A DNA stretch of 64,000 bases from an uncultured Gammaproteobacteria bacterium (lineage in GTDB: Bacteria; Patescibacteriota; Patescibacteriia; Patescibacteriales; GWE2-39-37). Made by a program: the position numbers and the translations under genes. Position 1 is the stretch's first letter. Every line of letters starts with the position of its first letter. Of the stretch, positions 1-30,784 are shown one piece after another. Location of the stretch: positions 277,496-341,495 of the forward strand of contig CAYUCS010000001.1 of NCBI GenBank assembly GCA_964443495.1, in the 5' to 3' direction. The notes below the pieces were generated by a model, which saw nothing but the letters and a program-made list of their open reading frames with translations, had not been told where the DNA came from and ran no database searches.

Positions 1-1725
1 CGTTCTTGGCCCGGAGCCAGCACTTCGCACGAAATCAAGTTTTCTTTGGTCAATTCGATCCCAGCTGGCGGCCGCATCATAATCACTCCGGCTGCCGGGC
101 AATTCGACATCCAGCCAGGTTTCGATTTTACGGATATCGATCTGACGGTCGCGGATAATCTTGGCGGACCTTATGCTGATCGCGAGCTAGCAGCGGCCCG
201 GTCGGCTGTAGAGGACGGAGTCAGTGTCGTGACCGGTGCCAATGGCAGTATCACGATCGATCTGAATTCCTCGCAAGGCATCAATATGGGCAAATATGTC
301 CAGGTCAAGCTCGGCACGATCGCGACTTACGGCAGCGCCGGCGATATTCTGATACAGAATCCCGGGTCGATCGGTTCATATCAGGTTACGATCGCCACTT
401 TCGACGATTTCGGGTCGCCGCTTGACGCAGCTGACGCGATGATCGCGGTAGTCAATCCGATTTCGGTTTCGACGAGCCAAGCGAAAATCAGGAGCAACGG
501 CGCCCCGACTGGCATCTTGGTCGGCGGCACCCAGCAGACGATCATGTCCTTGAACACCAACTACGACGCGACTTGCCGCTATTCGGCAGCCTCGAACACG
601 CCCTACGCCAGCATGGCAGGAATCTTCTCCAGTACGGGGGGCAAATTCCATTCCACGATCATTGCTGGCTTGTCTGACGGCCAGTATTACTATTATTACA
701 TCCGTTGCCGTGACACGCTCGGCGTAAATGACCCGGATGATTACTTGATCACTTTTTCGGTAGCTAACGCCAATGGCGGATCGGGCGGCACGGGCGGCGG
801 CACGGGCGGCGGCACGGGTTCGGGCACTGGCAGCGGTTCAGGCTCTGGCGGAGGCGGTTCAGGCTCTGGCGGTGGTACCGGTTCCGGCGTCGGTCCAGGC
901 AGCAGCAGCGGCTCTGGCGGAGGCGGCGGCGGTGGTGCGGCAGGAGGGCCAGGCGGCCCTTCGCCGGTCGCGACTGAACCATATCCGCCCAAGCCCGAAA
1001 ATCCTGACTTGTCGCTTTCCGGCTGGGCCAGTCCGAATAGTTCCTTGGTCTTATTGAAGGACGGCAAGGAGATTACACGTACTGGCGCTGATGCTGCCGC
1101 TAAATTTTCATTCGGCGTCAAGGATTTGACCGAAGGCATGTATTCCTTCGGCATCTATTCGACCGACACGGAAAATAGGCGCTCGCGCACTTATACCAAT
1201 ACTTTCTGGATCAAGCAGGACTCCAAAACGGTTTTGAACTCAATCATCGTGCCACCGACTATGGCCGTTGCCAAATCTAATCTGGCGCTGGGAGAGGCGC
1301 TCACGGTTTCGGGACAGTCCGTGCCGGATGCCGCCATCGAGTTGTGGATTGAGCCGGTCAAGACGGGCGTGACAGCTAAGGATGTGGTCAAGCAGCAGGG
1401 CGTCATCGGCAGCAATGGCAAATGGAGCCTGGCTGTCGATACCAAGGCTTTGGCTAAAGGGACGTACAACATCCGGGCTCGAGCTATGATAAAAGTAGTT
1501 GGTTACAGCGATTTCAGCCAGATTGTCGCCGTCGGCCTGGGTGAGTCGGTCAGTGCCGGGGTTTGTGCCGGCGCCGACCTCAACAAGGACGGCAAGGTCA
1601 ACCTGATCGATTTCTCCATCCTCCTTTATTATTGGGGCTCGAGCAACGCTTGCGCCGACCAGAACAAGGACGGCAAGGTCAACCTGATCGATTTCTCGAT
1701 TATGCTGTATAACTGGACAGGATAG
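1..1725 (+). CDS. Secreted surface protein with C-terminal tandem dockerin-type repeats (5' end probably truncated by the window edge)
   Basis: Frame 1 is open from nt 1, with no stop before the TTG at 46. A Gly/Ser/Thr linker is followed by Ig-like-looking segments. The protein ends DLNKDGKVNLIDFSILLYYWG...DQNKDGKVNLIDFSIMLYNWTG, which is two Ca-loop plus helix dockerin segments. The C-terminal half is paralogous to ORF 26614-27882. Confidence 0.8.
   Translation, partial: RSWPGASTSHEIKFSLVNSIPAGGRIIITPAAGQFDIQPGFDFTDIDLTVADNLGGPYADRELAAARSAVEDGVSVVTGANGSITIDLNSSQGINMGKYVQVKLGTIATYGSAGDILIQNPGSIGSYQVTIATFDDFGSPLDAADAMIAVVNPISVSTSQAKIRSNGAPTGILVGGTQQTIMSLNTNYDATCRYSAASNTPYASMAGIFSSTGGKFHSTIIAGLSDGQYYYYYIRCRDTLGVNDPDDYLITFSVANANGGSGGTGGGTGGGTGSGTGSGSGSGGGGSGSGGGTGSGVGPGSSSGSGGGGGGGAAGGPGGPSPVATEPYPPKPENPDLSLSGWASPNSSLVLLKDGKEITRTGADAAAKFSFGVKDLTEGMYSFGIYSTDTENRRSRTYTNTFWIKQDSKTVLNSIIVPPTMAVAKSNLALGEALTVSGQSVPDAAIELWIEPVKTGVTAKDVVKQQGVIGSNGKWSLAVDTKALAKGTYNIRARAMIKVVGYSDFSQIVAVGLGESVSAGVCAGADLNKDGKVNLIDFSILLYYWGSSNACADQNKDGKVNLIDFSIMLYNWTG
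775..960 (+). repeat. Low-complexity GGC/GGT-rich tract encoding a Gly/Ser/Thr linker
   Basis: Reiterated ggcggcacgggc / ggttcaggctctggcgg units, translated as GGSGGTGGGTGGGTGSGTGSGSGSGGGGSGSGGG.... A shorter equivalent lies at ~27075-27125 in the paralog. Confidence 0.85.
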
Positions 1726-1793
1726 GAGTAAAATTTTAAATTTTAAAACAGCAGTTTTATTAATCCGGTTTAAATTTATTAATTAAAAATTGT

Positions 1794-1821
1794 TTTTAAA
1801 TTTGAAATTTGAAATTTGAAA
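1794..1821. repeat. Tandem heptamer TTTGAAA (3 perfect copies plus 1 degenerate) just upstream of the hsp20 promoter
   Basis: tttttaaa tttgaaa tttgaaa tttgaaa, read directly. It sits about 15 nt upstream of the putative -35. Confidence 0.7.
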
Positions 1822-1836
1822 TTAATTTCAAGTATT

Positions 1837-1864
1837 TTGTCCAATCACCGAATCGTGCTATAAT
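1837..1864 (+). promoter_or_regulatory. Putative sigma70-type promoter for the Hsp20 gene (extended -10)
   Basis: TTGTCC (1837-1842), 16-nt spacer, TGcTATAAT (1856-1864), 37 nt before the ATG at 1901. Confidence 0.55.
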
Positions 1865-1900: not shown

Positions 1901-2368
1901 ATGTCTTTCCTGGATAAATTAAAACGCAAAGTCGATGTCTTGGAGGAAGGGAAGCTGAAAGAAGCGGAAAACGGCGAAGCCAAAAAGGAAACTCTGAGCA
2001 GCGGCACCAATTATGCCCAGCTAGACGTCGATATTTACGAAACCCCCGAGAAATATATCATCTTGGGCTCCATTGCTGGTGTCGATATCAAGAATTTGGA
2101 GCTTTCGGTCGGCGAGGAGAACGACGTTTTGATCATCCAGGGAAAAAAGGAATCGCCGATCGACCAGTTGAAGTCCGGCGAAACCAAGATCGTGCCGCAT
2201 CATCAGGAGTGTCAGTGGGGCGAGTTCTATCGGCAGATCATCTTGCCGCAAGAGATAAATCCGGAACTGATCGAAGCTTACGAAGAAAAGGGTGTCCTCG
2301 TGATCGTTCTGCCGATGTTACGGCTGCAGCGGGGCAAGAAGAATATTCAAGTCAGTTTGAAAGCTTGA
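1901..2368 (+). CDS. Small heat-shock protein, Hsp20/alpha-crystallin family
   Basis: 155 aa. Alpha-crystallin-like core: DVDIYETPEKYIILGSIAGVDIKNLELSV...VLIIQGKK...EFYRQIILPQEINPELIEAYEEKGVLVIVLP. Confidence 0.85.
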   Translation: MSFLDKLKRKVDVLEEGKLKEAENGEAKKETLSSGTNYAQLDVDIYETPEKYIILGSIAGVDIKNLELSVGEENDVLIIQGKKESPIDQLKSGETKIVPHHQECQWGEFYRQIILPQEINPELIEAYEEKGVLVIVLPMLRLQRGKKNIQVSLKA

Positions 2369-2385
2369 AATTAGATTGATATATT

Positions 2386-4218
2386 ATGGCCAATGTTAGG
2401 ACTAAAAAAGTCTGGCATCTCATTATGGCTCAGGTTTTGGTGCTGAGCTTTTTGTTTTCCGGCGGGCAACCGACCAAAGCGGCCGGGGCGACATTATTAC
2501 TCTCGCCAAGTAAGGGCAGCTACAATGTCGGTGCTACTTTCAGCGTCGGTGTTTATATAAACAGCGGCGGGTTAAGCATTAACGCGGCCGAGGCCACCAT
2601 ATCTTTCGACAAGGATGTGCTGAAGGTTAATACCATCAGCCAATCGGGTTCGATTTTCGAGCTATGGACAGCCAAGCCTTCATATTCCAATACCAAGGGT
2701 ACGATAAATTTCGGTGGCGGCGCCACTTCGCCGTACAAGGGCAGTTCCGGCAAAGTGTTTGCCATAAGTTTCACTGCCTTGAAGCAAGGCCAAGCTCAAG
2801 TCAGCTTTTCCGGCGGCATGATCACTGAGTACGGGCCGGAAGGCAAGAATGTTTATGGCGGCGCCAATTCCGGAGCTTTTACCATCACGGAAAAGAAGCC
2901 TGAAGTTATCGACAAACCGAAGGAAGTGCCGAGTGACAGCACTAGCAATAGCACGACCAAGGATGTGAATGCCAAGCCGAAGCCGACGACCGACAGTCAG
3001 ACCCAGACCAGTGCCTCCAAAGGCTTGCTGCCGCCGGCTCCGGAAATCACCTCGACCTCACATCCGAACCAGGATGATTGGTATCCTGTCGACAAGGCGT
3101 CTTTGGATTGGAAAATCCTCCCAAGTATTACTGGTGCCAGCCTGCTGCTGACTGAAAGTCCGAGCTCGACCTTGGGCAACACTTCTGATGGCGTCATCCA
3201 GACCAAGACTTATGACAAGCTGGCCGACGGTATGCATTATTTCCACATCAAGCTGCAGAATAGCGTCGGCTGGGGTCCGACCGCCCATCGCAAGATATTT
3301 GTCGATAAGACTCCGCCAACCATTCCGCGCCTGGAAATTGATAATGGCGGCGACGCCACCAACCCGAGCGTGCTGCTGCGTTTGTCATCAACCGATGCAA
3401 CTTCAGGACTGAGCAAGTACAAGCTAGGCTTTAACAATACCGATAAAGACTTGGAGCCGAGAGATTACATCCTGGCCCCTTATCAGATGGAAAAGCTCCT
3501 CCCGGGACGTTACACTGCATCGGTCAATGCTTATGACAAGGCAGGCAACATGGCCTCGTCATCGATCACGTTCGTGATCGAGCCGCTCAAGGCGCCGATG
3601 ATCACCGACATGCCGAAAGAGATCAAAACCAGGGATGACCTGATTATACGTGGCGTTTCCTTTTACCCCAACTCAACCATCAGCGTCTTTATCGGCAGTA
3701 ACACCGGCGACCCGATCAAGAACGATATCAAGGCAGATGAGAATGGGGATTGGAACTACTTCCATTCCGGCAAGCTGGCCAAGGGCAATTACGAGGTCTG
3801 GGCCAAGGTGACTGACGACCGCGGGGCTGAAAGCCTGAACGGTTCCAAGCAGCCGCTGTCGGTCATAGCTGTCGATTATATCACGGCTTATGGCCTATAC
3901 ATTATCATCGTGTTGGCTTTCATCATAGTGCTGCTGATACTTTATATCATTATCCTCAAGAAGAATTTCCGAGCGGAAAAGGCTAAGATATTGGACGAGA
4001 CGCAAGAGGCGCAGAAAAAGGTCAACGACATCTTCTTGGCTTTGCAGGAGGAGGTCGATGAGCTGATCATCTATGCCGACAAGAAGGCTGGCTTGTCCGA
4101 ATCGGAACGTCGTATCAAGGAAAAGATCAAGGAGGCTTTGGATATTTCCGAGGAATTCTTAAACAAGGAAATCGAAGACATAGAGAAGGAGATTATCGTT
4201 TCCAAGAAGAAGAAGTAG
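2386..4218 (+). CDS. Membrane-anchored surface protein: signal peptide, cohesin-like domain, Thr/Ser/Pro linker, three Ig-like segments, one TM helix, ~85-aa charged coiled-coil cytoplasmic tail
   Basis: The N-terminal hydrophobic segment ends ...PTKAAG. The cohesin-like pattern is ATLLLSPSKGSYNVGATFSVGVYINSGGLSINAAEATISFDKDVLKV...GKVFAISFTALKQGQAQVSF. TM helix: YGLYIIIVLAFIIVLLILYIIIL. It is a full-length paralog of 28991-30784. Confidence 0.7.
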   Translation: MANVRTKKVWHLIMAQVLVLSFLFSGGQPTKAAGATLLLSPSKGSYNVGATFSVGVYINSGGLSINAAEATISFDKDVLKVNTISQSGSIFELWTAKPSYSNTKGTINFGGGATSPYKGSSGKVFAISFTALKQGQAQVSFSGGMITEYGPEGKNVYGGANSGAFTITEKKPEVIDKPKEVPSDSTSNSTTKDVNAKPKPTTDSQTQTSASKGLLPPAPEITSTSHPNQDDWYPVDKASLDWKILPSITGASLLLTESPSSTLGNTSDGVIQTKTYDKLADGMHYFHIKLQNSVGWGPTAHRKIFVDKTPPTIPRLEIDNGGDATNPSVLLRLSSTDATSGLSKYKLGFNNTDKDLEPRDYILAPYQMEKLLPGRYTASVNAYDKAGNMASSSITFVIEPLKAPMITDMPKEIKTRDDLIIRGVSFYPNSTISVFIGSNTGDPIKNDIKADENGDWNYFHSGKLAKGNYEVWAKVTDDRGAESLNGSKQPLSVIAVDYITAYGLYIIIVLAFIIVLLILYIIILKKNFRAEKAKILDETQEAQKKVNDIFLALQEEVDELIIYADKKAGLSESERRIKEKIKEALDISEEFLNKEIEDIEKEIIVSKKKK

Positions 4219-4250
4219 GTAGGGGTTATCCACAACTAGACGGCTTTTCA

Positions 4251-4279
4251 AGCAACCGGCGCAAGCCGGTTGCTTTTTG
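4251..4279 (+). terminator. Rho-independent terminator after the cohesin gene
   Basis: agcaaccggc-gcaa-gccggttgct gives a 10-bp stem with a GCAA loop, followed by TTTTGT. Confidence 0.8.
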
Positions 4280-4556: not shown

Positions 4557-7500
4557 ATGCTTGTCACGTCAGAGAAAAACAAAAACCTATTGTTTAGGAT
4601 TTTAGTTGTATTTGTATTAATATCAGCTTCTTTCGGCTTGTTTCATGCTGCCTCAACTCCGGCTAAGGCTCAGGGCCAGGCGAGTCAGACTAGCCGTTTG
4701 AACATTTTTCCGGGGGCGTTCGTGCCCGTCGCTGACCAGTCCGGTTCGTCCTGGCAAAAGGTTGGCAACGCGTTCGTAAACGATCTCTCGGAAAATGCTG
4801 ACTTGGGCGAGTTCAATCAGGACAACTCCGCCTTGATCATGAACGCTGTGCCTGGCTCGCCGGAATCATCATCTGGATCGGGTGCGGGTGCGCCGTCAGA
4901 AGCGGTTCCGCCTGCTCAGGACGGAACAGGCGCGCCGACGCCTGCGGTCGTGCCGACGCCGGAGCCAAGCGCCGAGAGAGCGGAGCCTTCGGTCGAGAAG
5001 CCGATTGAAACGCCGACCGAGCCTCCGGCAACGGTTCCGGAAACACCGCAAGTTCCGGGAGAAGTCGAAACCCAGCCAGCCACCGAGCAGGTACAGCCAG
5101 CTGCAGACGCGCCGACCGCGTCAGAGCCGCTGTCGTTGCTGATCAAGGGATTTTTCGGCACTCTTATGCCCGATTTCTTTGGCGGATTGAAAGATGCGGG
5201 AATCAGCGTGACTGCTTTGGCGGCTAATTTTTCTAAGTCAGGCACGGCCAGTGCCCAAGACAAAGATGAGGCGTTGTCAGCCGGGACTTCAGCGTCTTCG
5301 ACGGCAGCCAGCGAAGGCGCGGCCTATTTGCCGCATGACATGGTCTTGAAGGATTTCAGCTTGCCCGGCAGCTTCAGCTCGAGCACTATCGCTAACGTGC
5401 AATTGCGGCTTTCGTTAGCGGCGCAGAGCAACGTCGCGGAAGATCGTTTGAAAATATATTATACGCTCGGAGAAAATTGGGAAGAGATGGGCTCGTTAGA
5501 CCTATCCGACCAGATTTCCAACCAGAGCAATAACGGATACTTCCTGTTCGGCTTGCCGATATTCGAATCATGGGACGATCTCGAAAAATTGCGCGTCAAG
5601 ATCAGCTATCTCGAGGCGCAAACCGGCGATGAGCATCGCGCGGTCGAGGCGTACGTGGATGGCGCTTGGCTAGAGGTCGATTATGAAGGCGCAGAAAAAG
5701 CGGCGGTTATCAGCGAGGCTGAGCCCGATAAGGACAAACAGAAGAGCGATGAATTTACCTTGGATCTGATATCCGGCAAGGACAATTTCAAGACGGCCGA
5801 CGACCCTGAATTCAATTTCCTATTCCAGCGCAAGCAAGGAATGATCGGCAAGGCCATTTCCGAGGTGCTCGGAACTTTCTGGGACCAGTATGGCGACATC
5901 GGTATCGAGGCCGTAATCATTGATGCTGGCGGCAAAAGGACGCCGGTCGAAACCTCCGTCGATTATCTGGCCGATGGCGAGTTCCGTGTCAAGCTCAAGA
6001 ACCAGATGCGATATGTCCGCCCAGGAAAATACTCTATCGAATTGAAAATCAGGGATGGCGACAAGATTTATACCCAGACGCAGGACTTCAGCTGGGGTGT
6101 CTTGGCCATCAATTCCAATAAGTCGGCTTATCTGCCGGGTGAAACGGCTTTTCTCCAGATGGCGACCCTGGACGACTTAGGCAACACTATCTGCGATGCT
6201 GATCTGTTTCTGGAGATCATGGCACCCGATGGCGGTGTCGCCTACTTGAATACGGGGAACGACCTGGTCGCGCGCAACAGCGCGTGCGGCCCCAACAACG
6301 TGATCGACACCCCGGATTATTACGCGCATTATAACGTCGGTGCAGCTGGTGCTTACCAAGTCAAGCTGATCGCTCGGACGGCCAATGGCAATAAGGAAAT
6401 AAGCGACTCGTTTGAAGTGCGCGAGGCCGTGCCGTTCGATATCGAGCGCGTCGGTCCGACCAGAATCTATCCGCTGGCGGACTACAAGATGCGCGTCAAT
6501 ATTCGCGCCAACGAAGATTATTCTGGCGACGTCAAGGAGGTTATTCCTGGACCATTCAAGGTCGTGAGCCAAGAGGTCATGCTGAATGGCAGCGTGATGG
6601 AACGGCCGCCTGAATTGTCTGTCGCCAACGACGGCCACGACGGCATCGCCCTGACCTGGCGCGGCGTGAAGCTGAAGCAGTATGATTCGTTGTCGATAGT
6701 TTACGAATTCGACGCGCCGGATATCTCGCCCGAATTCTATCTCTTGGGTCCTTTGTCCGTTGGCAGCTTTGTCGAAACACGCAAATGGCAGATCGCTTCG
6801 GATGCCGTCGGCGTCTATGTCGCGAACGCCGGCAGCAATGTCGGCTGGACCAATGCTACCAGGGCTTGGGATTCGGTCAATAACCAGTATGCTTCAAGGG
6901 ATATTCCGCCCAACGGCGCCAATGACTCTGCCAATTATTTGAAAGCGACAGCCAACAATGCCGTTGATTTGGGCGGCACGATCACCCAAGTTGAAATAGG
7001 CGTCGAGGGTTATGTCGAGCGCACCTCTGTCAGTGCCTGGTTAAGGCCGTTGCTGAACGGTACCGCGACCGGAACCGCCCAACGGATTCCAGGAACATCA
7101 TTGGGTACGAGCGACAGCGGAACAACCTTCTATGTCGATATCACCAGCGCCAGCCCCACTTGGACTTGGGCGAATATCCAGAATCTGGACATACTGGTGC
7201 ATGGCAGCAGCACGAATACTAGCAACCGTTTTTTGTACATCGATCAAATCAGACTGAGGGTTACGTATACGCCGCCTAATTCTGCCCCCGTCGGCGCGTT
7301 GAACAGTGCCGCCCAAAAGACCGATGGTTCAGGCAAGGTCGACATCGCCTTCAATGTCAGCGATGTCGATGGCGACACCTCCAAGGCTAAATTGGAATAT
7401 GTCGCCGGTTCGGCCTGCGATTTCACATCGCCGAGCGACCCGACTATCGACGCCTCCACCACCGCCACTTTCGGTGCGCCGGTGGTGGATAACGCCAGTG

Positions 7501-10500
7501 CCTATCAGGTCGGTACGACCACTGGCTGGATACTGACCGCCTCCGGAACGAATACGGTCAATGTCGATTGGAATGCCAAGACTGATCTGCCGACCGCTGA
7601 TGGAACGTATTGCCTACGTTTGACGGCGAACGACAAGGTTGATGACCAGACCGCGCCCGCCACCACGACCCTGGTGATCGACAATTCGGCTCCGACCGCT
7701 CCGGGGCAGCTGACGGCCACCACCAGCTCGGCTGGCAACGGGGCACAGCTGTCTTTCGGCGCCACCTCGACCGATAGCAACTTCGGCGAGTATAGGATTT
7801 ATTATAAGGTTGGATCGTCCGGCGTGACTGAAACTGACCAGACCTGGGGTAAGGCGGACGATTCGAATCTCGGCTTCGCTAGTTATAACGGCGCCACTTC
7901 GACGGTCATAGATGATCTTGAACCTCTAACCACCTACGTTTTTGCCATCTGGGCCTACGACCAGTTCGGCAACAAGTCGAGCTCGAGCGAAGTGACGCTG
8001 ACTACGGGCAAGGCTGGTCCGATCCGCGCCAATTCCGTCATGTTCTTGGCCGGCCAGTATTCTTCAAGCGATGGTACCACCGGCCAGCAATCGGACACCG
8101 ACCAGACGCTGCCGGCTTTCGATTTCAAGCTGGCTGAGTCCGGCGCCAGAATCAAGAACGCTTATCTGGTTTTCGAGGCGCAGTACGAGGCGTATGTGAA
8201 CAATGCCGGCAATTATACAGGGTATCAGCTGGCATTCGACGCGTGCCAACAGCCGTGTACGGCCAACGCCTTCACTGGCACGGGCAAGGTATCGGTCACG
8301 GACAGTACGGTCTTGTCTTTTGACGAGACCGGCAGCAATCAGGTCCGCTTGGTTTTCGATGTGACTAATGAGGCTCAGCTTGCCTCGTATTCCGGCGGCA
8401 GCTCCTTGTTGTCGGGCCAAGTCGGCTACAGCATCGATCGCGGCACGGCCGTGAATTCTATCGCCTCTGCCAAGGCAACACTGATCGTGACGTACCAATA
8501 CGATGAAAGATACACGGATAGCTACACCAATACGGTCATCTATCCGCTCGAATCGACCGTAGCCGGCGACCAGGGAACTCGCCGCGCCGTCCAGGCTGAT
8601 GATTGTACGGTCGATAGTACTTGCCCCACGTTCAGTTATAACATGGACATCCCTGAGTTCGGCGAGAAGATTTCCCAGTGGTTCCAGACCTATAACCAGA
8701 ACGACGGTAACAGCACGGCCGATATGAACGCCAACGTCAACATCCAAGGCACCAATTTCGACAGCAACACCTATATCCATGAGTCGGCCCTGGGCGGAAC
8801 CCAAGGCGGCTCGCCGGTCATTTATTTTTACGATGTCAGCGGCTATGCCGAGAGCACGGACCAGCAGCTCGAATATCATGCTACCAGCCCGGGAGCCACG
8901 CTTACTTATTATCTGCTTGGCGGCGAGGTAGTCGAAACTTATACTGCCTCGACTTCTGCCGCTATCCGCACGCGCACCGTCGCAATGCCGCTTGGGGTTA
9001 TCAATAACGGCTTGACCAATGCCAAGACCGGCACCAGCACCTCGGTCTATTTTCCGGAAAACGGACAGGCCACCGGTACGGTTTCGATCAAGAAAGCTTG
9101 GTTCAGAATAATATCTAACAACTACAACACCTTAGCCAATACGGTGACCGTTTCCACTCAGGTCGGCGGTCGCGCTGAAACGGCCGGGTCGGTCTACAAC
9201 TACAATCAAGCCGGTACCTCGAACAAGCCTTCGTTCAATACTATCCATGTCATTCCGGCAGCCGATTATGCCGAATTGGAATCGGCTAACGCGACCACGC
9301 CAGTAGCGGTTTCGGTCTATACGCAGAACAGCAACAATGCCTCGCAGGGCGGAACTTCGGCTGAACTGGTCATAACTTATTCTTATACGACCGAAGTTTT
9401 CGGCCACTTGACCTCGTTGTCCGTCCCGGCCGGACAGACGGCCGTCGATGGCAATGCCCAAAGCGCCACGACTTCGGTCGCGAGATTCATCGCTCCGGAA
9501 GCTCCGAGTTCAAAAACGATAGTATCTGCCGGCCTGCTCGTAAGCTATCTTTTTAGCGATAGCGATGCCGCGATGGCTGGCGCCAACTTGACTTTGGACG
9601 CTGATTTATCGACGAGCTCGCCGGTTTGCGTTAACGCTTACAATTCGCGTCCTGACTCCGTGAATGCCTTTACCGAATTCTATAGCAACGTTACGGCGTC
9701 CATGGTGGCGACTAATAATCAAGAATATATCGCGTGCTATTCCAATGATGGCGGCGGGGACACTACCGGCGGCGGCAAGATGAACGGCATCTTGCGTTAT
9801 GTCTATCGCTATGACGCGCCGCCAGTGCAGTATCGGCAAGACAATTGGCGCTGGTATGGCAATGCTGATTCCTTGGCGCCTGGAGCCGCGAGAGCTGGCG
9901 AGAAGGCTACTACGACAGGTGTCAATTTAGCTGACATATTACGCTTGCGCTTGAACGTCGGCTCTTTGTCCGAAGAGGCTGTCACCTCGAGCCAGGCGTT
10001 CAAGCTGCAATACGGTCTCGGTTCCAACTGCGGGGCCATCGCAAGCTGGTCGGATGTCGGCACTTCGACCAGCGCTTCGGCCTGGCGGAGTTACGATAAT
10101 GCCGGCGTTGCCGACGGCTCGTCCACAGCCGCCGCCCTATTATCGACTTCGGCAAGATTCGAGAGCTACGAGGAAGATAATCCATCGGTTCTGAATCCTC
10201 AAGCCTTGGCCGAGGACGAATATGGCGAGTGGGATTGGGTGCTGTACGACAATGCCGCTACATCCTCGTCCGATTATTGCTTCCGCATGGTCAAGTCTGA
10301 CGGCACCCCGCTGACGAATTATGGCAGCTATCCGATCCTCACCACTGCCGCCAGCAATACAGCTCCGGGACTGCCGGATAATCTGATCCAGTATATCGGT
10401 CCGGCCGGAACGACCACCATACCGAATCAAGGCTGGATCAATCAGGCGACGGTCAGATTCCTTTCGCAAGCCAATGACGTCAATATCAACGAATCAGTCG

Positions 10501-22850: not shown

Positions 22851-24593
22851 ATGTCGCAAGCAATTAAAAAACAACTCAAACGATCGTATCCCGTCGTGGC
22901 CGGTTTTTTGATTCTCAATATTATCATTTCAGCCGTGTTTTTCAACATGCGTTTTGATTTGTTGACGATCAGCTGGCTTAACAGTGCTTTAGCTCAAGTC
23001 GACACTGCCACTAGTTCGGTTACGGTCAAGAATGCCGCACCGGCCTTTACGGTCAATGCGGCTGAAAATCCGACTTCTTCTTCGACCTCGCCGGTCAATG
23101 TCGGCGCCAATATCAGTTTCATCGGTACGGCTGATGATCCGGAAAACAACAGCTATTATTTGATTGTCTGCGACAGCACGGCCACGGCCACTCCCGGTGC
23201 CGGCGGCGCCGCGCCTACCTGCAGTGCGGGTAACACCATCAACTGCGTCTCAGGCCTAACCGCCGACACCGCCCAAGCGTCCTGCACTTATTCCAATGTG
23301 GCTAATCCTGGCGGTGAAACCAAAGATTGGGCGGCCTTTGTCTGCGATAATCATGCTACCCAAGCCCAGTGTACCACCGTCGGCAATTCCGGCTCGGGTG
23401 ATTCCGGCTCTCCATATTATGTCAATCATGCTCCGACCTTTACGGCCGTGGCCACGACCGACGATAACAAGGATCCGGGCGGCATCTTTACGATCGAGGG
23501 CAGTGTCGGTGACACTGACGTCCAAGGCGGCGGCGATACCCTGACTATGAATGTCTGCAGCACCAATAGCTGGTCAACGACTACCGGTTGTGCCGCCTCC
23601 ACGCTCTGCACCGGCACTACGACCGGTGCTACCGTTTCCTGCACCTACACCAGCCCGGTGCCGATGGCTCATGGCACCTCCTCATACTATGCTTTCGTCA
23701 AGGATTGGCACGAATTAGCCTCGGCCGCCAATTCTCGAACTAGCGTAATTACTACCAATAATGTGGCTCCCGCTGTAAGCAACATAACTTTTAATAATGT
23801 AAGTGATATTACTTTGAATATTAAGGGTGCGGGCGCTAAAACCGTTTGGGCGACCTCTACTTCCGTTACGGATAACAACGGCTGCGCTGATATAGTTGAT
23901 GCCACTAGCACGATATATTATTCAGCGGTAGCTGGCGGTGCTGGCTGTGCAGCTGATGACAATAACTGCTACAAAGCGACTGCAGCAGCGTGCAATGTCA
24001 GTGATTGTTCTGGCGGTGTTGATACGGTAGCCACTGTCGCCTGCAGTGTCGGCTTAGCATATCATGCCTTGCCGACCAATGGCGATGGTTCAGATGGTAA
24101 TCCTTATTGGAGCAATAACTGGATAGCTGCAATATTCGCTTATGACGAAACTTTGTCATCAAGCTTAGCAACAAGTTCCGGTAAGGAGGTTATCGTTGCC
24201 CCTGCGCTAGAGGTTTCCGAGTTAACTATTCCTTATGGAATTTTGCAAGCTGGGCAGAATACCGGCGCTTACAACGCAACTACTACTGTCTTGAATTACG
24301 GCAACTGTCCATTGGCCAGTCAGTTTGAGGGTACGTGGATGTCTAATGGCGGTAATCACATTGCGGAAAATAATCAGAAATACGATTTATCAACTGCTGT
24401 TTATGGATCGCTGACCTACAACTTGTCTTCAACCACTCCCCAAACCTTGAATCTTTCCAATAAGCCGACCAGTGCAGCTGATGTGACCAGGCCGGTTTAC
24501 TGGGGCATTGCCATCCCAGCCTTACTGCCTTCGGGAGATTATACTGGCACGAACACCTTTACGCCTCTTATTAACGCTGGCGGAACTTGGTAA
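22851..24593 (+). CDS. Membrane-anchored Cys-rich surface protein, a stand-alone paralog of the giant protein's C-terminal module
   Basis: N-terminal TM: YPVVAGFLILNIIISAVFF. Residues ~60-580 are collinear with the last ~520 aa of ORF 4557-17819. Confidence 0.8.
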   Translation: MSQAIKKQLKRSYPVVAGFLILNIIISAVFFNMRFDLLTISWLNSALAQVDTATSSVTVKNAAPAFTVNAAENPTSSSTSPVNVGANISFIGTADDPENNSYYLIVCDSTATATPGAGGAAPTCSAGNTINCVSGLTADTAQASCTYSNVANPGGETKDWAAFVCDNHATQAQCTTVGNSGSGDSGSPYYVNHAPTFTAVATTDDNKDPGGIFTIEGSVGDTDVQGGGDTLTMNVCSTNSWSTTTGCAASTLCTGTTTGATVSCTYTSPVPMAHGTSSYYAFVKDWHELASAANSRTSVITTNNVAPAVSNITFNNVSDITLNIKGAGAKTVWATSTSVTDNNGCADIVDATSTIYYSAVAGGAGCAADDNNCYKATAAACNVSDCSGGVDTVATVACSVGLAYHALPTNGDGSDGNPYWSNNWIAAIFAYDETLSSSLATSSGKEVIVAPALEVSELTIPYGILQAGQNTGAYNATTTVLNYGNCPLASQFEGTWMSNGGNHIAENNQKYDLSTAVYGSLTYNLSSTTPQTLNLSNKPTSAADVTRPVYWGIAIPALLPSGDYTGTNTFTPLINAGGTW

Positions 24594-24615
24594 AAATTAT
24601 CTGCAATATATATGA

Positions 24616-24642
24616 AAGAGGCGCCTTCGGGCGCCTCTTTTG
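24616..24642 (+). terminator. Rho-independent terminator
   Basis: aagaggcgcc-ttcg-ggcgcctctt gives a 10-bp stem with a UUCG loop, followed by a T-run. Confidence 0.85.
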
Positions 24643-24800
24643 TGTAAAACTTTAATCTTAGCCTTAATATCATTAAAAAAAGGGTTAAAATCAAGGCATT
24701 TTTCTCCTTGAAAAATGATAGTGGATTATAGTATAATATAAAGGAATATTAATATATATTTGCGGGATATATTTTTTTGTATTGGGCGAATTTTTAGAAT

Positions 24801-25418
24801 ATGAACAAGGTCCAAATCGCGGTCTATGGGGCAATCGTTTTTTCGTTCTTTTATTATCTGATCAGATTTACTTTTGACCTGCTTCTGCGTGGCTTTGCGC
24901 CGGTCGTTTCCTCGCGTCCCTGGGTGATTGAGACCTTGATTGATGAATTGAAAAAGAACAAGATTAAGGAGAACCCGGTAATTTACTCGTTAAGTTGCGG
25001 CAAGTCCGGCTTCCTTTATTTCGTCGGCAAGGCTTTTCCGAACGCTACCTTGGTCGGCGTAGAGAACGACTTCTTGCTTTATCTGCTTGAGCGGATACAG
25101 GTCATGATCAGGCTGCTTGATATCAAGGTGCTGTATCAGAAGCGGCTCTACAATCTGGATGTCAGCCGAGCGAACGTGATTTATTGCTATTTGGGGGTCA
25201 AATATCTGCGCGAACTGCCGAAGAAATTCAAATTCGAGTGCAAGCCCGGAACCTTGATCATCAGTGTCGGCTTTCCGATTCCGAATTTGCCGGAAAAGAA
25301 AGTTTTGGAAATCTCCCAACAGCAAGGACGTCTGGATTTCCTGTCCAAGCGCAAGATTTTTTCTCCGAAAAAGAAGGAGGGCAAGCGGCCTCATCTGATA
25401 TATATTTACGAAATCTAA
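24801..25418 (+). CDS. Hypothetical membrane protein, possibly with a class I methyltransferase-like fold
   Basis: N-terminal TM: IAVYGAIVFSFFYYLI. IYSLSCGKSGFLYF...LVGVENDF weakly resembles SAM-binding motif I and the post-I acidic residue. This is a weak call. Confidence 0.35.
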   Translation: MNKVQIAVYGAIVFSFFYYLIRFTFDLLLRGFAPVVSSRPWVIETLIDELKKNKIKENPVIYSLSCGKSGFLYFVGKAFPNATLVGVENDFLLYLLERIQVMIRLLDIKVLYQKRLYNLDVSRANVIYCYLGVKYLRELPKKFKFECKPGTLIISVGFPIPNLPEKKVLEISQQQGRLDFLSKRKIFSPKKKEGKRPHLIYIYEI

Positions 25419-25437: not shown

Positions 25438-26526
25438 ATGAAAAAGGGTATAATAATCAATTTTTTCGGAACCATAGCAGTAGCGCTGTGCCTTTTGGGG
25501 TACGCCAAGAGCGCTTCGGCCGGTTTTGGCATCTCGCCGCCCTATCTGAAGAACCAGCAGCTGGTGCCGGGGTCCCGCTTCGAACAGCAGATCACCCTTT
25601 TGCGCTCTTCAGCTGATGAAGACCTTAGAGCAACCATCAAGGTCAACGCTCCGGAAATCGCCCCCTGGATTACGATCGACAAGGGCGAGGAGTTCGTTCT
25701 GCCGAAGGGCGAGGTCCAAGTGCCGATGATCGTGACGGTCAATGTGCCTAAGAGTGCCGAGTTGGGCAATTACAAAGGCAGTATCAATATCAAGGTCGCC
25801 TCAGCCAATGCTGGCGGCGCTGGCGTGGCCATCGCACTTGGTGCCCGCGTGGACATCGATTTGACCCTTACCAATGTCGCCAACAGCGACTTCGTGGTAA
25901 AGACCGCCGCCATCCCGGATTTCGAGATGCTTGAGTGGCCCTGGAACTGGAAGATCTTCAGTGCCTTCCTTCATCGTGCTACCGTCGTCTTGAATATCGA
26001 GAATATCGGCAATGTAGAAACGGCTCCGTCCAAGGTCGCTTTGGAGATTTTGGATATTTCCAAGACCAAGACGCTTGAGAATCTGGTGGACAAATCGATC
26101 GAAAAGATACCCTCGTTCTCGACCAAGGAAGTCGCCGCCCATTTCCCGACCAAGCTCGGCATCGGGCAATATTGGGGCAAGGTCAAGGTCTATAAGGGCA
26201 ACGACATAGTAAACGTCTATGAAATCGCTTTCACCATCGCCAAACCGGGCGAATTGCCCAACGGCGGGCCGAGCCTCGGCCTATTGCCTTGGCTGCTCAT
26301 GGCCGGCTACCTCGTCGCTGCTATTATCATCTTGGCTTTCTTGATAAAGATCAGGATCTGGCGCTTGACAGGCAAGGGCTTTATCCTGCTAGTGGCTCAA
26401 TTCTTCGCTCCGATCAGGCCGGTTGCCAAGGCGATGTCTAAGCAGACCAATAATCTGAAGACAAGCTTCTGGCGCTGGGTCGGTACCAAGGTTTCCCAGC
26501 ATAACGATAACGATCGGCGCAATTAA
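25438..26526 (+). CDS. Secreted, C-terminally membrane-anchored surface protein (layout reminiscent of DUF916/DUF3324-type Gram-positive surface proteins)
   Basis: Signal peptide ...GYAKSASA, then GFGISPPYLKNQQLVPGSRFEQQITL.... Two beta-rich halves, C-terminal TM LLPWLLMAGYLVAAIIILAFLI, and a basic tail. Confidence 0.5.
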   Translation: MKKGIIINFFGTIAVALCLLGYAKSASAGFGISPPYLKNQQLVPGSRFEQQITLLRSSADEDLRATIKVNAPEIAPWITIDKGEEFVLPKGEVQVPMIVTVNVPKSAELGNYKGSINIKVASANAGGAGVAIALGARVDIDLTLTNVANSDFVVKTAAIPDFEMLEWPWNWKIFSAFLHRATVVLNIENIGNVETAPSKVALEILDISKTKTLENLVDKSIEKIPSFSTKEVAAHFPTKLGIGQYWGKVKVYKGNDIVNVYEIAFTIAKPGELPNGGPSLGLLPWLLMAGYLVAAIIILAFLIKIRIWRLTGKGFILLVAQFFAPIRPVAKAMSKQTNNLKTSFWRWVGTKVSQHNDNDRRN

Positions 26527-26613: not shown

Positions 26614-27882
26614 ATGCGTTTGCGTTCGTTAACCATATTTTTGTTATTGATTTGCCAATTGTTTTGGCCATTGGCTGACGCCTTGGCGGTCAGCATCGCT
26701 ACGACTACGGTGACTGTTGAGGCTAGCTGCGGTGATGCCTTTTTGGATTTCGGCGAGGCCTGTGACTTGACCGACTTCGGCGGACAGACTTGCCAGGATC
26801 ATCTTGGCATCGGCGGAGTTCCTTTCGAGCAAGGAGAATTGACTTGCTCGAATAGCCTCGTGCCATTTGATTGCTCCCAAATCTTGACCACTTTTTGCAG
26901 TACTTGCGGCAACGGCGTAAAGGAGGGTTTCGAGCAGTGCGATGGCTCGGATGTCGGCTCGAGCACTTGCCAGACTTTCGGATATAACACCGGCAGCCTT
27001 TCGTGCGCTTCGAATTGCAACCTGGTAATTACTGGCTGCGCCAGCGTCGGCTTGACCGAGCCGGGTAACGCCGGCTCCCAAGGCGGCGGCACGGGCGGAG
27101 GCGGCGGCACGGGCGGAGGCGGTTTTCCGGCCGGCTTCGTGCCTGGTTCGGACACGGCACCGAAGGCCACCAAAGTGGTGGTCAACGGCAAGGCTTACCC
27201 TGGTTCCGACGTCAACATCCTGATCGACGGCAAGACCATCGGCATCGTCAGGGCTGACCCGAAGGCCGATTTCTATTTCGAAAGCGAGACGATCACTCCT
27301 GGAGTCATCGGGCTGGGGTTATGGGCTGAGGACAGCAAGGGCCTGAAGTCGGCCTTGCAGACCCTGACTTTCCGCGTCGCCTCAGGCGCCGTTACGACGG
27401 TTTCTGGCGCGTACCTGTCACCGAGCATCGATATCGACAAGCCGACCGTGGGCCAGGGCGAGATCCTTAAGGTGTTCGGCCAGACCGTGCCGACCAGCGA
27501 TGTTTCGGTCGTCTTCCATTCCGAGACCGAAGTCATCAAGCAGACCCAGAGTTCAAACAAAGGAGAGTGGACCCTGAATTTCAATACCGCCCCGCTGGAG
27601 TCAGAAGCATATCATATCGTCAAAGCCTCGTTCGAACAGAAGGGAGCCAACAATATCATCAAAAGCGGATTTTCCAAGGCGGTCAGCTTCTATGTCGGCA
27701 AAGGTGGCTTCGCCCAACCTTGCCCCAAGGCTGACTTGAACAAGGACAAGAAGACCAATCTCGTCGATTTTTCCATCCTTCTCTATTATTGGGGCACCGA
27801 CAACACCTGTGCCGACCAGAACCGCAACAAGAAAGTCGACCTGATCGATTTCAGCATCATGCTTTATAATTGGACAGGGTAG
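26614..27882 (+). CDS. Secreted protein: two Cys-rich repeats, Gly-rich linker, Ig-like region, tandem dockerin-type repeats
   Basis: I prefer the ATG at 26614 (MRLRSLTIFLLLICQ... signal peptide) over the TTG at 26602. Cys-rich repeats: CGDAFLDFGEACD... and CGNGVKEGFEQCDGSD.... C-terminus: DLNKDKKTNLVDFSILLYYWG...DQNRNKKVDLIDFSIMLYNWTG. Confidence 0.8.
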   Translation: MRLRSLTIFLLLICQLFWPLADALAVSIATTTVTVEASCGDAFLDFGEACDLTDFGGQTCQDHLGIGGVPFEQGELTCSNSLVPFDCSQILTTFCSTCGNGVKEGFEQCDGSDVGSSTCQTFGYNTGSLSCASNCNLVITGCASVGLTEPGNAGSQGGGTGGGGGTGGGGFPAGFVPGSDTAPKATKVVVNGKAYPGSDVNILIDGKTIGIVRADPKADFYFESETITPGVIGLGLWAEDSKGLKSALQTLTFRVASGAVTTVSGAYLSPSIDIDKPTVGQGEILKVFGQTVPTSDVSVVFHSETEVIKQTQSSNKGEWTLNFNTAPLESEAYHIVKASFEQKGANNIIKSGFSKAVSFYVGKGGFAQPCPKADLNKDKKTNLVDFSILLYYWGTDNTCADQNRNKKVDLIDFSIMLYNWTG

Positions 27883-27946: not shown

Positions 27947-28972
27947 ATGAAAAATCTTATCAAAATATTCATTTTTGCAAGCTTATTAGCCGCTCCCGCC
28001 TTGGCTGCTCGTGCGGCAACCATATATTTGACGCCGTCTAGCGGCAGCTACGGATTCGGCGACGTCTTCGCTGTCGATATCAAGGTCGATCTGGATGGCG
28101 GCGACGAGTGCATCAATACGATCCAGGGCGTGGTCGGCTTCGACAAGGACTATCTTGAGATGGTCGATTTCAGCGGCGGCGAGTCGATCTTGTCTTTATG
28201 GATCGACCTGCCAAAGACCGGCGACATGCAGAACATTAATCATGAAAAAGTGGTCAGATTTACCGGAGGCATCCCTGGCGGCTATTGCGGCAAGATACCG
28301 GGCGACCCGGGAGAAAGCAACATTGTCGGCAAGATGATCTTCAAAGTGAATAATTTCAAGGCTGATGCCGTGCCGAAGCCTGTGGCAAGGATCGATTTCC
28401 TGGACGGCACCCAAGTCCTCTTGAATGACGGGCTTGGCACCGAGGCTAAGATGGCCCTGAAGGGCGCTGAGCTCACCATTACCGAGCAGCAGCCTGAGCA
28501 GAGGAAAGAATGGGATGCGCTCAAGAACGATGACGTCGTTGCGCCGGAGCCTTTCGTAATCGAGATCCAGCGCAGCCAGTCGATGTATAACGGCAAGAAC
28601 TATCTCATTTTCAATACCACGGACAAGCAGTCTGGTATCGACCACTACGAGGTGCTTGAAACCAGATTCGACGATAGTGCCAGCGAACCTTCCTGGTTTG
28701 ACTGGTTCAAGGTCAAGCCGGCCGCTACTGAATGGAAGCTGGCAAGCACTCCGTATGTCCTCGAAGACCAGACTTTATCAAGCAATATCAAGGTCAAAGC
28801 CGTCGATAAGGCAGGCAATGAGCGCATCGAGGAGTATTTCATCAAAGGACCGGTTCAGACGCCAAAGTCGCCTATGAGATTCGTGCCTTTTGTGATATTA
28901 TTTATCATAGTCATGGCTGCAGCCGGGTTCGCTTATCGCAAGATGAAATCCAGGCGCCGGCCAACCATGTAA
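27947..28972 (+). CDS. Membrane-anchored protein with an N-terminal cohesin-like domain
   Basis: Signal peptide ...ALAARAA, then TIYLTPSSGSYGFGDVFAVDIKVDLDGGDECINTIQGVVGFDKDYLEMV.... C-terminal TM FVPFVILFIIVMAAAGFAY plus a basic tail. Confidence 0.65.
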   Translation: MKNLIKIFIFASLLAAPALAARAATIYLTPSSGSYGFGDVFAVDIKVDLDGGDECINTIQGVVGFDKDYLEMVDFSGGESILSLWIDLPKTGDMQNINHEKVVRFTGGIPGGYCGKIPGDPGESNIVGKMIFKVNNFKADAVPKPVARIDFLDGTQVLLNDGLGTEAKMALKGAELTITEQQPEQRKEWDALKNDDVVAPEPFVIEIQRSQSMYNGKNYLIFNTTDKQSGIDHYEVLETRFDDSASEPSWFDWFKVKPAATEWKLASTPYVLEDQTLSSNIKVKAVDKAGNERIEEYFIKGPVQTPKSPMRFVPFVILFIIVMAAAGFAYRKMKSRRRPTM

Positions 28973-28990
28973 AGCAATTAAATCAAGGAG

Positions 28991-30784
28991 ATGAAAATCA
29001 ATAAGAAGAACCCCTTAATCGTTTTGTCAGCGCTTTTCGCGCTGGTGGCTGCGAATTTCAGCTTGGTCTCGCCCGCGTTAGCGGCGGGAGCCTCGCTCTA
29101 TGTCGCCCCGGCTACGGGCACTTACGTCATCGGCGACAAGATCACGATCACAATCAAGGCCTATACTGGCGGCAACGCCATTAATGCCGCTGAAGGCGTC
29201 TTGAATTTCGACAAGAGCTTTCTGGAAGTCGTCGGCACTTCAAAGAGCGGTTCTATCTTCACTATGTGGCCGGCTGAGCCGAGCTATTCCAATGGCGCCG
29301 GCACGGTCAGCTTCGGCGGCGGTTTGACGCCTCCGGGCTTTTCCGGCCAGTCGGGCAAGATTATCTCCGTTACTTTCAAGGCTAAGGCGGTCGGCACTAC
29401 CCAGGTCAGATTCTCTTCCGGGGCTATCTTGGCCAATGACGGCAAGGGAACGAATGTCCTTGAGACCATGGGCAGCGCCTCTTTGAATATTTCCGCCAAA
29501 GAAGGCGTGGTGTCGGAGTCAGCCCTCAAGGAAACGGCTGATGGCACTAAGCCATTGGTCATCAAGGATGACAAGGCGGCGGTCGTGACTGACGAATACA
29601 ACAAGCCTAATATCGTTTCGGCGAGCCACCCCGATCAGAATACGTGGTATGCCAAGAATAACGTCGAATTCGCCTGGGAAGTTCCAAGCGGCGTGACCGG
29701 AGTCAGTTATGATTTCAATAAGGAATTGAACTTCGATCCCAAATCGGAATCGGCCGGATTGGTTTCTTCCAAGTCTTATGACAATGTCGATAATGGGATA
29801 TGGTATCTCCATGTCAAATTATTTGACGGCAAGAAATGGGGCACGACGGATCATTACCGAGTGATGATCGATAATGTCAGGCCGAAGCCTTTTACCATCA
29901 AAGTCGAACAGACCGATGCGGGCAACTGGCCGCGGCTGCTTTTCAAGACCAAGGATGATATCTCTGGCGTCCAGTCGTATGAAGTCTATGTCAACAGCTT
30001 GGAAGAGAACAAATACAGCATCGCCGAGGATGAATCGCAAGAGAGCCTGAGCGTCGAGTTAGCCCAGCTGGGTTACGGCGACCATACGGCTTTGATCAAA
30101 GTCTTGGACAAGGCCGGCAACGAGACCGACCAGACGATCGAATTCGTCATCCAGCCGATCGAGACCCCTGTTATCAAGAACATCTCCAAGGAAATCAAGC
30201 CGTCAGAGCAGTTTTTCGCCAACGGCACGGCCCTGCCGAACAGCTTGGTGAACATTTACATTCAGGACGAGGCCGGCAAGATCGCGGCCAAAGTCGTGCA
30301 TAGCGACAAGAACGGCAACTGGTTCTATCTTAGCGATGCCGGCCTGCGCAATGGCCGCTACTTCGCTTGGGCCGAAGGCGAAAATGAGAACGGCCTGAAG
30401 AGCGTGCCGACGCAGAAAATCAGCTTCTTGGTGACGCCGCCGGTATTCGCCACCTTCGGATCGTTCGTCATCAACTATTTTACGGTCATTACCAGCCTGC
30501 TGTTCATGATCATCCTGATCGTCGCTTTGGTCATGCTCTTGAGCGGCAAGTTGCGCAAGAAATTGAAAAAGGAGACCGTCGAGGTAGAGGACGTGCTGCA
30601 CCAGAATATGGCCGGATTGAAACAGATGGTCGACGATGAAGTTTCCAAAATCGACCAGTATAAGCGCATTACCGAGGTCAGGAAAGAAAGCACTAAGATG
30701 AAACAGTCCTTGCGCGATTCGATCGATACGACCGAGCGGAATATCTTGAAAGAAATCAAGGACGTCGAAGATATCCTTAAGTAA
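28991..30784 (+). CDS. Membrane-anchored cohesin-like surface protein with a coiled-coil cytoplasmic tail (paralog of 2386-4218)
   Basis: GASLYVAPATGTYVIGDKITITIKAYTGGNAINAAEGVLNFDKSFLEVV...GKIISVTFKAKAVGTTQVRF. The same downstream Ig-like segments are present. TM: VITSLLFMIILIVALVMLL. The tail is charged. Confidence 0.7.
   Translation: MKINKKNPLIVLSALFALVAANFSLVSPALAAGASLYVAPATGTYVIGDKITITIKAYTGGNAINAAEGVLNFDKSFLEVVGTSKSGSIFTMWPAEPSYSNGAGTVSFGGGLTPPGFSGQSGKIISVTFKAKAVGTTQVRFSSGAILANDGKGTNVLETMGSASLNISAKEGVVSESALKETADGTKPLVIKDDKAAVVTDEYNKPNIVSASHPDQNTWYAKNNVEFAWEVPSGVTGVSYDFNKELNFDPKSESAGLVSSKSYDNVDNGIWYLHVKLFDGKKWGTTDHYRVMIDNVRPKPFTIKVEQTDAGNWPRLLFKTKDDISGVQSYEVYVNSLEENKYSIAEDESQESLSVELAQLGYGDHTALIKVLDKAGNETDQTIEFVIQPIETPVIKNISKEIKPSEQFFANGTALPNSLVNIYIQDEAGKIAAKVVHSDKNGNWFYLSDAGLRNGRYFAWAEGENENGLKSVPTQKISFLVTPPVFATFGSFVINYFTVITSLLFMIILIVALVMLLSGKLRKKLKKETVEVEDVLHQNMAGLKQMVDDEVSKIDQYKRITEVRKESTKMKQSLRDSIDTTERNILKEIKDVEDILK

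Follow-up and report, generated by a model that had tools for sequence, protein, structure and literature searches.

Three cohesin proteins and two dockerin proteins are encoded in one gene run

The DNA analysed here is a 64-kb stretch of contig CAYUCS010000001.1 (assembly GCA_964443495.1), referred to below as the window, whose positions 1-30784 are taken up by one run of genes on the + strand. All five proteins with which this work is concerned are encoded in that run: doc1 and doc2, each of which ends in a dockerin module, and c1, c2 and c3, each of which carries a cohesin domain and a single transmembrane helix. The genes lie in two groups, doc1 and c1 at one end of the run, with a gene for a small heat-shock protein between them, and doc2, c2 and c3 at the other (Table 1). 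In-house hidden Markov models (HMMs), applied to the whole 64 kb, identified three cohesin modules, two dockerin modules and no others; each cohesin protein has one cohesin, and no multi-cohesin scaffoldin is encoded in the window. The nearest relatives of c3 and c1 in a homologue search belong to Candidatus Falkowbacteria and other Patescibacteria, and the organism itself is a relative of Candidatus Falkowbacteria within the Patescibacteria (CPR).

doc1 and doc2 end in dockerin modules with all Ca-ligand positions present

An earlier note on this DNA had assigned dockerins to the ends of doc1 and doc2, and this assignment is borne out by Pfam. As isolated 60-aa modules, both reach the gathering threshold of Dockerin_1 (PF00404; 22.9 bits), doc1 (1543-1725) with 38.9 bits and doc2 (27700-27882) with 23.4 bits, while the full-length proteins score 33.7 and 18.2 bits, respectively. 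Each module is made of two 12-residue loops with D1, N3, D/N5, N/D9 and D12, every loop being followed by DFSI(L/M)LY.W. These Ca-ligand positions are kept across an alignment of 70 homologous C-termini, the consensus of which (ADLNxDGRVNLVDFSILLYWW...ADxNxDGKVDLxDFSIMxYYWTG) always lies at the extreme C-terminus. The top sequence matches of the dockerins in the PDB are cellulosomal (2y3n_B, E 2.9e-5; CelS, E 4.6e-5), with both loops aligned, and most of the doc2 homologues (n=1183) carry PF00404. The two halves of the module are nearly identical, which suggests a dual binding mode.

The remainder of the two proteins is built along similar lines. In doc1 a beta-sandwich head is followed by a Gly/Ser-rich linker, two immunoglobulin (Ig)-like domains and the dockerin, and in doc2 a signal peptide and a Cys-rich head (there are 15 Cys in the whole protein) precede a Gly-rich linker, two Ig-like domains and the dockerin. 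Similarity between them is confined to the C-terminal 245 aa, that is, to the Ig-Ig-dockerin part (37% identity, E 7e-46). A 'Myxococcus cysteine-rich repeat' had been suspected in the head of doc2; it has no match in NCBIfam or Pfam and is not claimed here. As for secretion, which the earlier note had ascribed to both proteins, the signal peptide of doc2 is present, while doc1 is cut by the window edge and its signal peptide is deduced from orthologues of 597-632 aa at two other loci (L086 and L087), which have one. Neither doc1 nor doc2 has a transmembrane helix or any recognisable anchor other than the dockerin.

We also modelled the last 159 residues of doc2 with AlphaFold2 (AF2). The model (predicted local distance difference test, pLDDT, 84.8; predicted TM-score, pTM, 0.62) consists of an Ig-like sandwich, a low-confidence linker (residues 102-104, pLDDT <50) and two loop-helix elements, the helices of which lie after the loops at 120-128 and 147-158 (pLDDT 81-91). 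A Foldseek search of the PDB with this Ig-dockerin model, whose linker is of low confidence, gave generic Ig matches only and no X-Doc chain; it adds no confirmation of the dockerin fold and lends no support to a rigid X-dockerin.

c1, c2 and c3 carry cohesin domains that full-length Pfam scans miss

Full-length Pfam scans of the three cohesin proteins gave no cohesin at E<=0.1. When the domains were isolated, c1 (2479-2901, 43.3 bits) and c3 (29081-29506, 40.3 bits) scored above the gathering threshold of Pfam Cohesin (PF00963; 24.1 bits), and 29 of 32 members of the cohesin family matched PF00963 at E<=1. A Pfam check of the five proteins thus recovers the dockerins and the isolated cohesins of c1 and c3, and it recovers neither the cohesins at full length nor that of c2. 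None of the five proteins lies above the curated cut-offs of NCBIfam. Several homologues likewise have no precomputed PF00963 match.

The cohesin of c2 was recognised through that of c3. Profiles of the two families align with an HHalign probability of 100 (E 5.9e-40, 138 aligned columns); the c2 domain has two insertions relative to c3, and the motif LxNDGxGT is common to both. The second extracellular domain of c2 is in turn homologous to c3 aa 289-382 (E 2e-18). Since both its cohesin and its second extracellular domain are homologous to those of c3, c2 is a shortened paralogue of c3.

Of the three domains, that of c3 was modelled with AF2, and the result is an all-beta fold (pLDDT 95.3, pTM 0.88), in agreement with the flattened, nine-stranded jelly roll that defines cohesins. 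The best 50 Foldseek matches of this model in the PDB are all cohesins, headed by 1g1k_A (E 9e-13, TM-score 0.75). It lies nearest to type I cohesins (TM-score 0.75-0.81, root-mean-square deviation 2.6-3.0 A), and cohesins of types II and III fit it less well. Sequence searches of the PDB with the cohesin profiles found no cohesin, so the domain is tied to solved cohesins by structure comparison only. Those searches returned one weak match, 7urp_A, a 160-aa chain named 'Ribonucleases G and E' (E 0.006-0.17), which can be aligned with the cohesin domain over its first half and is perhaps a cohesin-like domain that was given the wrong name.

In known type I complexes the dockerin is bound by the 8-3-6-5 sheet of the cohesin. 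Among c3-type cohesins there is hardly any variation in the beta8-beta9 loop (NDGKGTNV), and conservation is modestly higher in the strands of the 8-3-6-5 sheet than in those of the second sheet (1.26 vs 1.59 bits, p 0.03). This pattern of conservation fits, if weakly, a canonical binding face.

The cohesin proteins are predicted to be N-out membrane proteins with cytoplasmic tails

We assessed the topology of the cohesin proteins by hydropathy. N-terminal hydrophobic signal segments are present in c2 and c3, as they are in doc2. In c1 the signal peptide is followed by the cohesin, a Ser/Thr/Pro linker, an Ig-like stalk (DUF7743, Big_13), a transmembrane helix and a charged tail of 86 aa. The order in c3 is similar (signal peptide, cohesin, Ig-like Big_13 stalk, transmembrane helix), and its tail is an 80-aa, charged, coiled-coil-like segment. 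The short protein c2 has a signal peptide, the divergent cohesin, one Ig-like domain, a transmembrane helix and a tail of 11 aa. Because the single helix is in each case followed by K/R-rich sequence, the three proteins are assigned an N-out/C-in orientation, as type-I membrane proteins. A cohesin and a single transmembrane helix had been attributed to each of them before, and that description stands, except that the proteins do not end at the helix but continue into the cytoplasmic tails.

No carbohydrate-active domain accompanies the modules

Cohesins and dockerins are best known as the Ca-dependent plug and socket of cellulosomes. In Pfam scans, no protein of the block has a significant glycoside hydrolase (GH), carbohydrate-binding module (CBM), polysaccharide lyase (PL) or carbohydrate esterase (CE) domain, which agrees with what the earlier note had read from the sequence. 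Dockerin proteins from ten other loci were scanned in the same way; their heads contain MG2, FN3, InlB B-repeat or Big_6 domains and no enzyme domain. Across lineages the Ig-Ig-dockerin tail is the constant part of these proteins, and the heads differ widely in length, some being all but absent and others exceeding 1000 residues.

Dockerin and cohesin genes are kept together in relatives

The synteny of the genes was surveyed by a pattern scan over one genome per GTDB species, in which 514 stretches encoding this cohesin were found. The best 80 loci were analysed, their open reading frames (ORFs) being classified by phmmer, and 68 of them could be evaluated for dockerin-cohesin adjacency. In 65 of the 68, the gene immediately before the first cohesin gene encodes a doc2 homologue, a close coupling that extends over many Patescibacteria lineages. 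The prevailing order is doc2, c2-type, c3-type; two cohesin genes are present in 57 loci, three in 8 and four in 3. The cassette occurs in species-representative genomes of Falkow-, Parcu-, Uhr-, Komeili-, Kerfeld-, Giovannoni-, Wolfe- and Yanofskybacteria, among other lineages. In about 34 of the best 80 loci p362 immediately precedes doc2. Neither the p362 protein of the window nor ten orthologues matched a Pfam family, and HHalign comparisons of p362 with cohesin, Ig and dockerin profiles found nothing.

The doc1-HSP20-c1 group recurs in two relatives, at 60% and 45% identity, and there too an HSP20 gene stands between the doc1-type and c1-type genes (L086, 9513-9977; L087, 9374-9823). A small heat-shock protein, which is cytoplasmic, is in this way conserved within a module of surface proteins, two of which, c1 and c3, have charged tails of 80-86 aa on the cytoplasmic side.

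Strong terminator-like hairpins, together with a promoter-like site, lie between the groups (Table 1), with a further promoter-like site, a consensus match only, ahead of the gene for a 4420-aa protein (the giant). As judged from gene order and these signals, the true units are doc1-HSP20-c1 and p362-doc2-c2-c3, and not the 30-kb block. Two small modules flanking other surface genes are therefore a better description than the locus of about 30 kb, bracketed by dockerin-cohesin pairs, which had been proposed earlier: hairpins separate the units, and the linkage to the giant and ABC genes is restricted to certain lineages.

A search with the cohesin profile through 1.84 billion representatives yielded 13,086 proteins at E<=1e-3, 1,544 of them at E<=1e-30. 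About 22 of the top 150 representatives are proteins of 690-920 aa with two cohesins. In the three of these that were inspected (P0276, P0277 and P0279), the transmembrane helix and basic tail of a c2 run into the signal peptide of a c3, so that they may be true fusions or read-through gene calls; in either case such proteins lend weaker support to a functional link between c2 and c3. Another member of the same cohesin subfamily, P0275 (2276 aa), has a scaffoldin-like architecture with nine cohesins, FN3 domains and a C-terminal dockerin.

Tethering of dockerin proteins by membrane cohesins is the probable function

The identities of the modules, the topology of their carriers, the absence of enzymes and the conservation of the dockerin-cohesin gene order were established computationally. 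Given true family membership, N-out membrane cohesins, secreted dockerin proteins without an anchor, the lack of any degradative domain and the coupling of the genes, plug-and-socket display is the most economical explanation. We thus consider it probable that, by Ca-dependent and non-cellulosomal binding, the dockerin proteins are held at the cell surface by the membrane cohesins encoded next to them. In such a system each of c1, c2 and c3 would present a single type-I-like cohesin on the outer tip of a stalk of Ig domains, with the single transmembrane helix as the anchor in the membrane, and doc1 and doc2 would be exported via Sec, having no anchor of their own. Each dockerin is predicted to plug into the cohesin encoded alongside it, doc1 into c1 and doc2 into c2 and/or c3. 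It is structurally unlikely that a single dockerin holds c2 and c3 at once, because in known type I complexes the two dockerin helices contact one and the same cohesin face. This plugging would fix a non-enzymatic, lineage-variable head on the surface, where it may serve adhesion or envelope architecture.

Several observations weigh against this reading. Mutual information between the dockerin helix positions and the cohesin columns of c3, computed over 59 triads, was not enriched on the 8-3-6-5 face (p 0.80); variable columns and phylogeny dominate the signal, so the comparison is uninformative. The cohesin of c2 has no direct Pfam match even as an isolated domain, and the dockerin of doc2 is marginal in Pfam, with 18.2 bits at full length and 23.4 bits in isolation. 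In three of the 68 loci c2 and c3 occur without an adjoining dockerin gene. Some dockerin proteins are nearly headless (292-320 aa), which may mean that the complex is structural in itself and does not display a cargo. Finally, the conserved p362 and HSP20 genes have no role in the proposed mechanism and are left unexplained by it.

It is also conceivable, though unlikely, that the modules are true family members which do not bind each other, their genes being co-regulated within the same envelope process. The cohesin would then bind another ligand, for instance a host surface or a glycan, and the dockerin would be a Ca-stabilised terminal module or would have some other partner. Cohesins and dockerins are widely found as orphans with no known partner, and this explanation would also accommodate the three loci without an adjacent dockerin gene and the missing covariation among the 59 triads. 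It is, however, hard to reconcile with an adjacency which holds in 65 of 68 loci over deep lineages, or with the dockerin being the best-conserved part of proteins that have no other anchor. Moreover, to our knowledge, the function of the cohesin and dockerin folds has been mutual binding in every case studied.

We are more doubtful still that the cohesin and dockerin proteins are accessories of a larger envelope machine, in which the ABC system, the FN3 membrane protein (fn3p), the giant and p580 take part and the 30 kb or so form one system, for example an apparatus by which the giant adhesin is assembled, exported or retained. The order fn3p-ABC-MacB-p210-p580-(p205)-p362-doc2-c2-c3 is indeed kept in roughly 20 of the 80 loci, in Falkowbacteria and relatives and down to about 47% identity, and in L086, as in the window, c1 is followed by the giant gene. 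Most loci, however, have the dockerin, c2 and c3 genes without the ABC block, and no giant gene follows c1 in L087; terminator-like hairpins and promoter-like sites lie between the units, and the in-house HMMs found neither a dockerin nor a cohesin in the giant or in p580.

With a similar degree of doubt we regard the notion that the triad represents a lineage-defining surface organelle in Patescibacteria and not an optional adhesin display. It would form an obligate hetero-oligomer, and c2 and c3, which are apparently fused into one polypeptide in some lineages, would jointly keep the Ig-Ig-dockerin protein in place as a tether across the envelope. The conserved cytoplasmic coiled-coil tails and the conserved HSP20 of the c1 module would couple surface attachment, for example to a host cell, to the cytoplasm.

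The block encodes no carbohydrate-degrading enzymes, no CBM and no multi-cohesin scaffoldin, and a cellulosome was rejected, since its defining features were looked for in the window proteins and in ten heads from other loci and were not found. A minimal cellulosome-like degradation complex with enzymes encoded elsewhere in the genome is very improbable, as nothing favours it beyond the fact that cohesins and dockerins are there, while the block and the ten scanned heads hold no GH, PL, CE or CBM, there is one cohesin per protein and no scaffoldin, and the dockerin proteins beside the cohesins are non-catalytic.

Comparison of the cassette with known cohesin-dockerin systems

The closest likeness in fold is to cellulosomal type I pairs (1g1k and 2vn5 of Clostridium cellulolyticum; OlpC-Doc435, 4dh2, of C. 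thermocellum), whose cohesins resemble that of c3, which has no helices, and whose dockerins have the same two duplicated Ca-loop and helix segments with canonical ligands. In other respects the two differ. Here there is neither a multi-cohesin scaffoldin nor a dockerin-borne enzyme or CBM in the block, the cohesins are anchored by a transmembrane helix with a cytoplasmic tail instead of SLH domains or sortase, and the dockerins are of about 50 aa, with an inter-segment linker of 6-15 aa, at the extreme C-terminus and ending in WTG. The carrier, unlike the hosts of cellulosomes, is a Patescibacterium.

In its arrangement the proposed system is similar to the ScaE-CttA pair of Ruminococcus flavefaciens (4iu3, 2zf9), where a single-cohesin cell anchor tethers a non-catalytic adhesin via a C-terminal X-dockerin, and in both cases an Ig-like module stands ahead of the dockerin. 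The ScaE-CttA modules are, however, of type III and sortase-anchored, and R. flavefaciens cohesins match the c3 model less well (TM-score 0.58-0.72). The non-cellulosomal cohesins of Archaeoglobus fulgidus (2xdh) and of the Clostridium perfringens toxin complex (2vo8, 2jh2) are among the fold matches of c3. In contrast to other non-cellulosomal modules, those described here belong to a conserved dockerin-cohesin-cohesin operon with fixed Ig-Ig-dockerin and cohesin-Ig stalk-transmembrane architectures. Peer and co-workers reportedly described, in 2009, cohesin and dockerin modules outside cellulolytic organisms and without carbohydrate-active enzymes, orphans being widespread. No earlier non-cellulosomal example with so conserved a cassette is known to us, and a full-text literature search found no paper in which the cassette is described. 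The names 'cohesin domain-containing protein' and, in some cases, 'dockerin type I repeat-containing protein' are already given to family members at NCBI.

Dockerins have been met with in other small bacteria. In Southlakia epibionticum the dockerin-bearing surface protein SEML1_0315 is essential; its gene stands alone beside a hydrolase gene and a tRNA gene, and no cohesin is found in the tables of that paper (PMC10633639). In Omnitrophota there are giant ORFs with nine dockerins (PMC10066038). In both, the dockerins are borne by non-enzymatic envelope proteins of host-dependent nanobacteria, for which adhesion has been proposed. Those studies identified no cohesin partner, whereas here the partner candidates are encoded side by side. 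A link between the cassette and SEML1_0315 was considered and dropped, since the surroundings of that gene do not resemble the cassette.

A large part of the diversity of uncultivated bacteria falls within the Patescibacteria, many of which live attached to other cells with a surface machinery that is almost entirely uncharacterised. The cassette offers a widely conserved candidate protein-protein pair, consisting of small soluble domains in six combinations, which could explain how variable non-enzymatic proteins are fixed on their surfaces. It would clearly exemplify a conserved operon of cohesins and dockerins that is unrelated to polysaccharide degradation, and bears on the role of non-cellulosomal modules in general. 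For annotation, it should be kept in mind that automated pipelines may score the cassette genes as 'cellulosome' markers in metagenomes and that full-length Pfam scans can overlook the cohesin altogether.

Neighbouring genes and further observations

The features of the region are collected in Table 1. Beyond position 30784 the window contains ordinary chromosomal genes, e.g., those for DNA polymerase III alpha, BipA, ThrRS, MiaB, MiaA and GatB; a GT4 glycosyltransferase is encoded downstream of the hairpin that closes the c3 unit.

Table 1. Genes, domains and putative transcription signals of the region, with positions in the window
Feature	Positions	Strand	Description
doc1	1..1725	+	Secreted dockerin protein; N-terminus (~45 aa including the signal peptide) beyond the window edge
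Dockerin module of doc1	1555..1722	+	Two Ca-loop and helix segments; in-house HMM E 1.5e-32
HSP20/alpha-crystallin gene	1901..2368	+	Between doc1 and c1; Pfam HSP20 40.8 bits
c1	2386..4218	+	Type-I membrane cohesin protein
Cohesin domain of c1	2479..2898	+	Pfam Cohesin 43.3 bits; in-house HMM E 5e-54
Transmembrane helix of c1	3901..3957	+	aa 506-524; K/R-rich tail after it; hydropathy scan
Terminator-like hairpin after c1	4250..4275	+	11-bp stem and T run; consensus scan only
Giant	4557..17819	+	4420-aa FN3-rich surface protein; neighbour, not a core part
fn3p	17920..19545	+	FN3 membrane protein; neighbour, not a core part
ABC ATPase	19550..20878	+	Neighbour, not a core part
MacB/FtsX permease	20895..22088	+	Neighbour, not a core part
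p210	between MacB/FtsX permease and p580	+	Neighbour, not a core part
p580	22851..24593	+	580 aa; paralogue of the C-terminus of the giant; neighbour, not a core part
Strong terminator-like hairpin after p580	24615..24640	+	Consensus scan only
Promoter-like site before p205	24708..24737	+	Near-consensus, 11/12 matches; consensus scan only
p205	24801..25418	+	205 aa; first gene of the unit with p362, doc2, c2 and c3
p362	25438..26526	+	Signal peptide, beta-sandwich region, C-terminal transmembrane helix; directly upstream of doc2
doc2	26614..27882	+	Secreted dockerin protein; alternative ORF start TTG 26602
Dockerin module of doc2	27712..27879	+	In-house HMM E 2e-31
c2	27947..28972	+	Short membrane cohesin protein
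Cohesin domain of c2	28007..28492	+	Divergent, two insertions; HHalign vs c3 family; in-house HMM E 7e-40
Transmembrane helix of c2	28880..28936	+	aa 312-330; hydropathy scan
c3	28991..30784	+	Long membrane cohesin protein
Cohesin domain of c3	29081..29503	+	Type-I-like, all-beta; Pfam 40.3 bits; AF2; Foldseek
Transmembrane helix of c3	30485..30541	+	aa 499-517; hydropathy scan
Strong terminator-like hairpin after c3	30801..30828	+	12-bp stem, 10 GC pairs; closes the p205-p362-doc2-c2-c3 unit; consensus scan only

The MacB/FtsX-type ATP-binding cassette (ABC) pair that had been read from the sequence is confirmed by Pfam matches to ABC_tran (PF00005, 101 bits), MacB_PCD (PF12704, 79.7 bits) and FtsX (PF02687, 56.6 bits). 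The ATPase is 442 aa long, its nucleotide-binding domain reaching to about residue 250 and being followed by a helical-looking extension of ~200 aa, which has no family match; homologues of the ATPase in other loci keep the extended length (439-483 aa).

The giant contains at least five FN3 domains and 46 Cys, with a hydrophobic segment at its N-terminus. That it has a short paralogue in the same run proved correct: its C-terminus and the 580-aa protein share 42% identity (E 1e-105), the similarity spanning the last ~520 residues of the giant. There are 17 Cys in p580, and the Cys-rich C-terminal region common to the two proteins has no Pfam family. No Pfam match was obtained for p205, whose homologues hold the same position in about five further loci (L001/L002, L006, L008, L026 and L031). 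Between 6000 and 20000 the GC skew is negative over the giant and FN3 genes and positive in the flanking genes of the same strand, which probably reflects the Thr/Ser/Ala-rich composition of the giant and FN3 proteins rather than replication.

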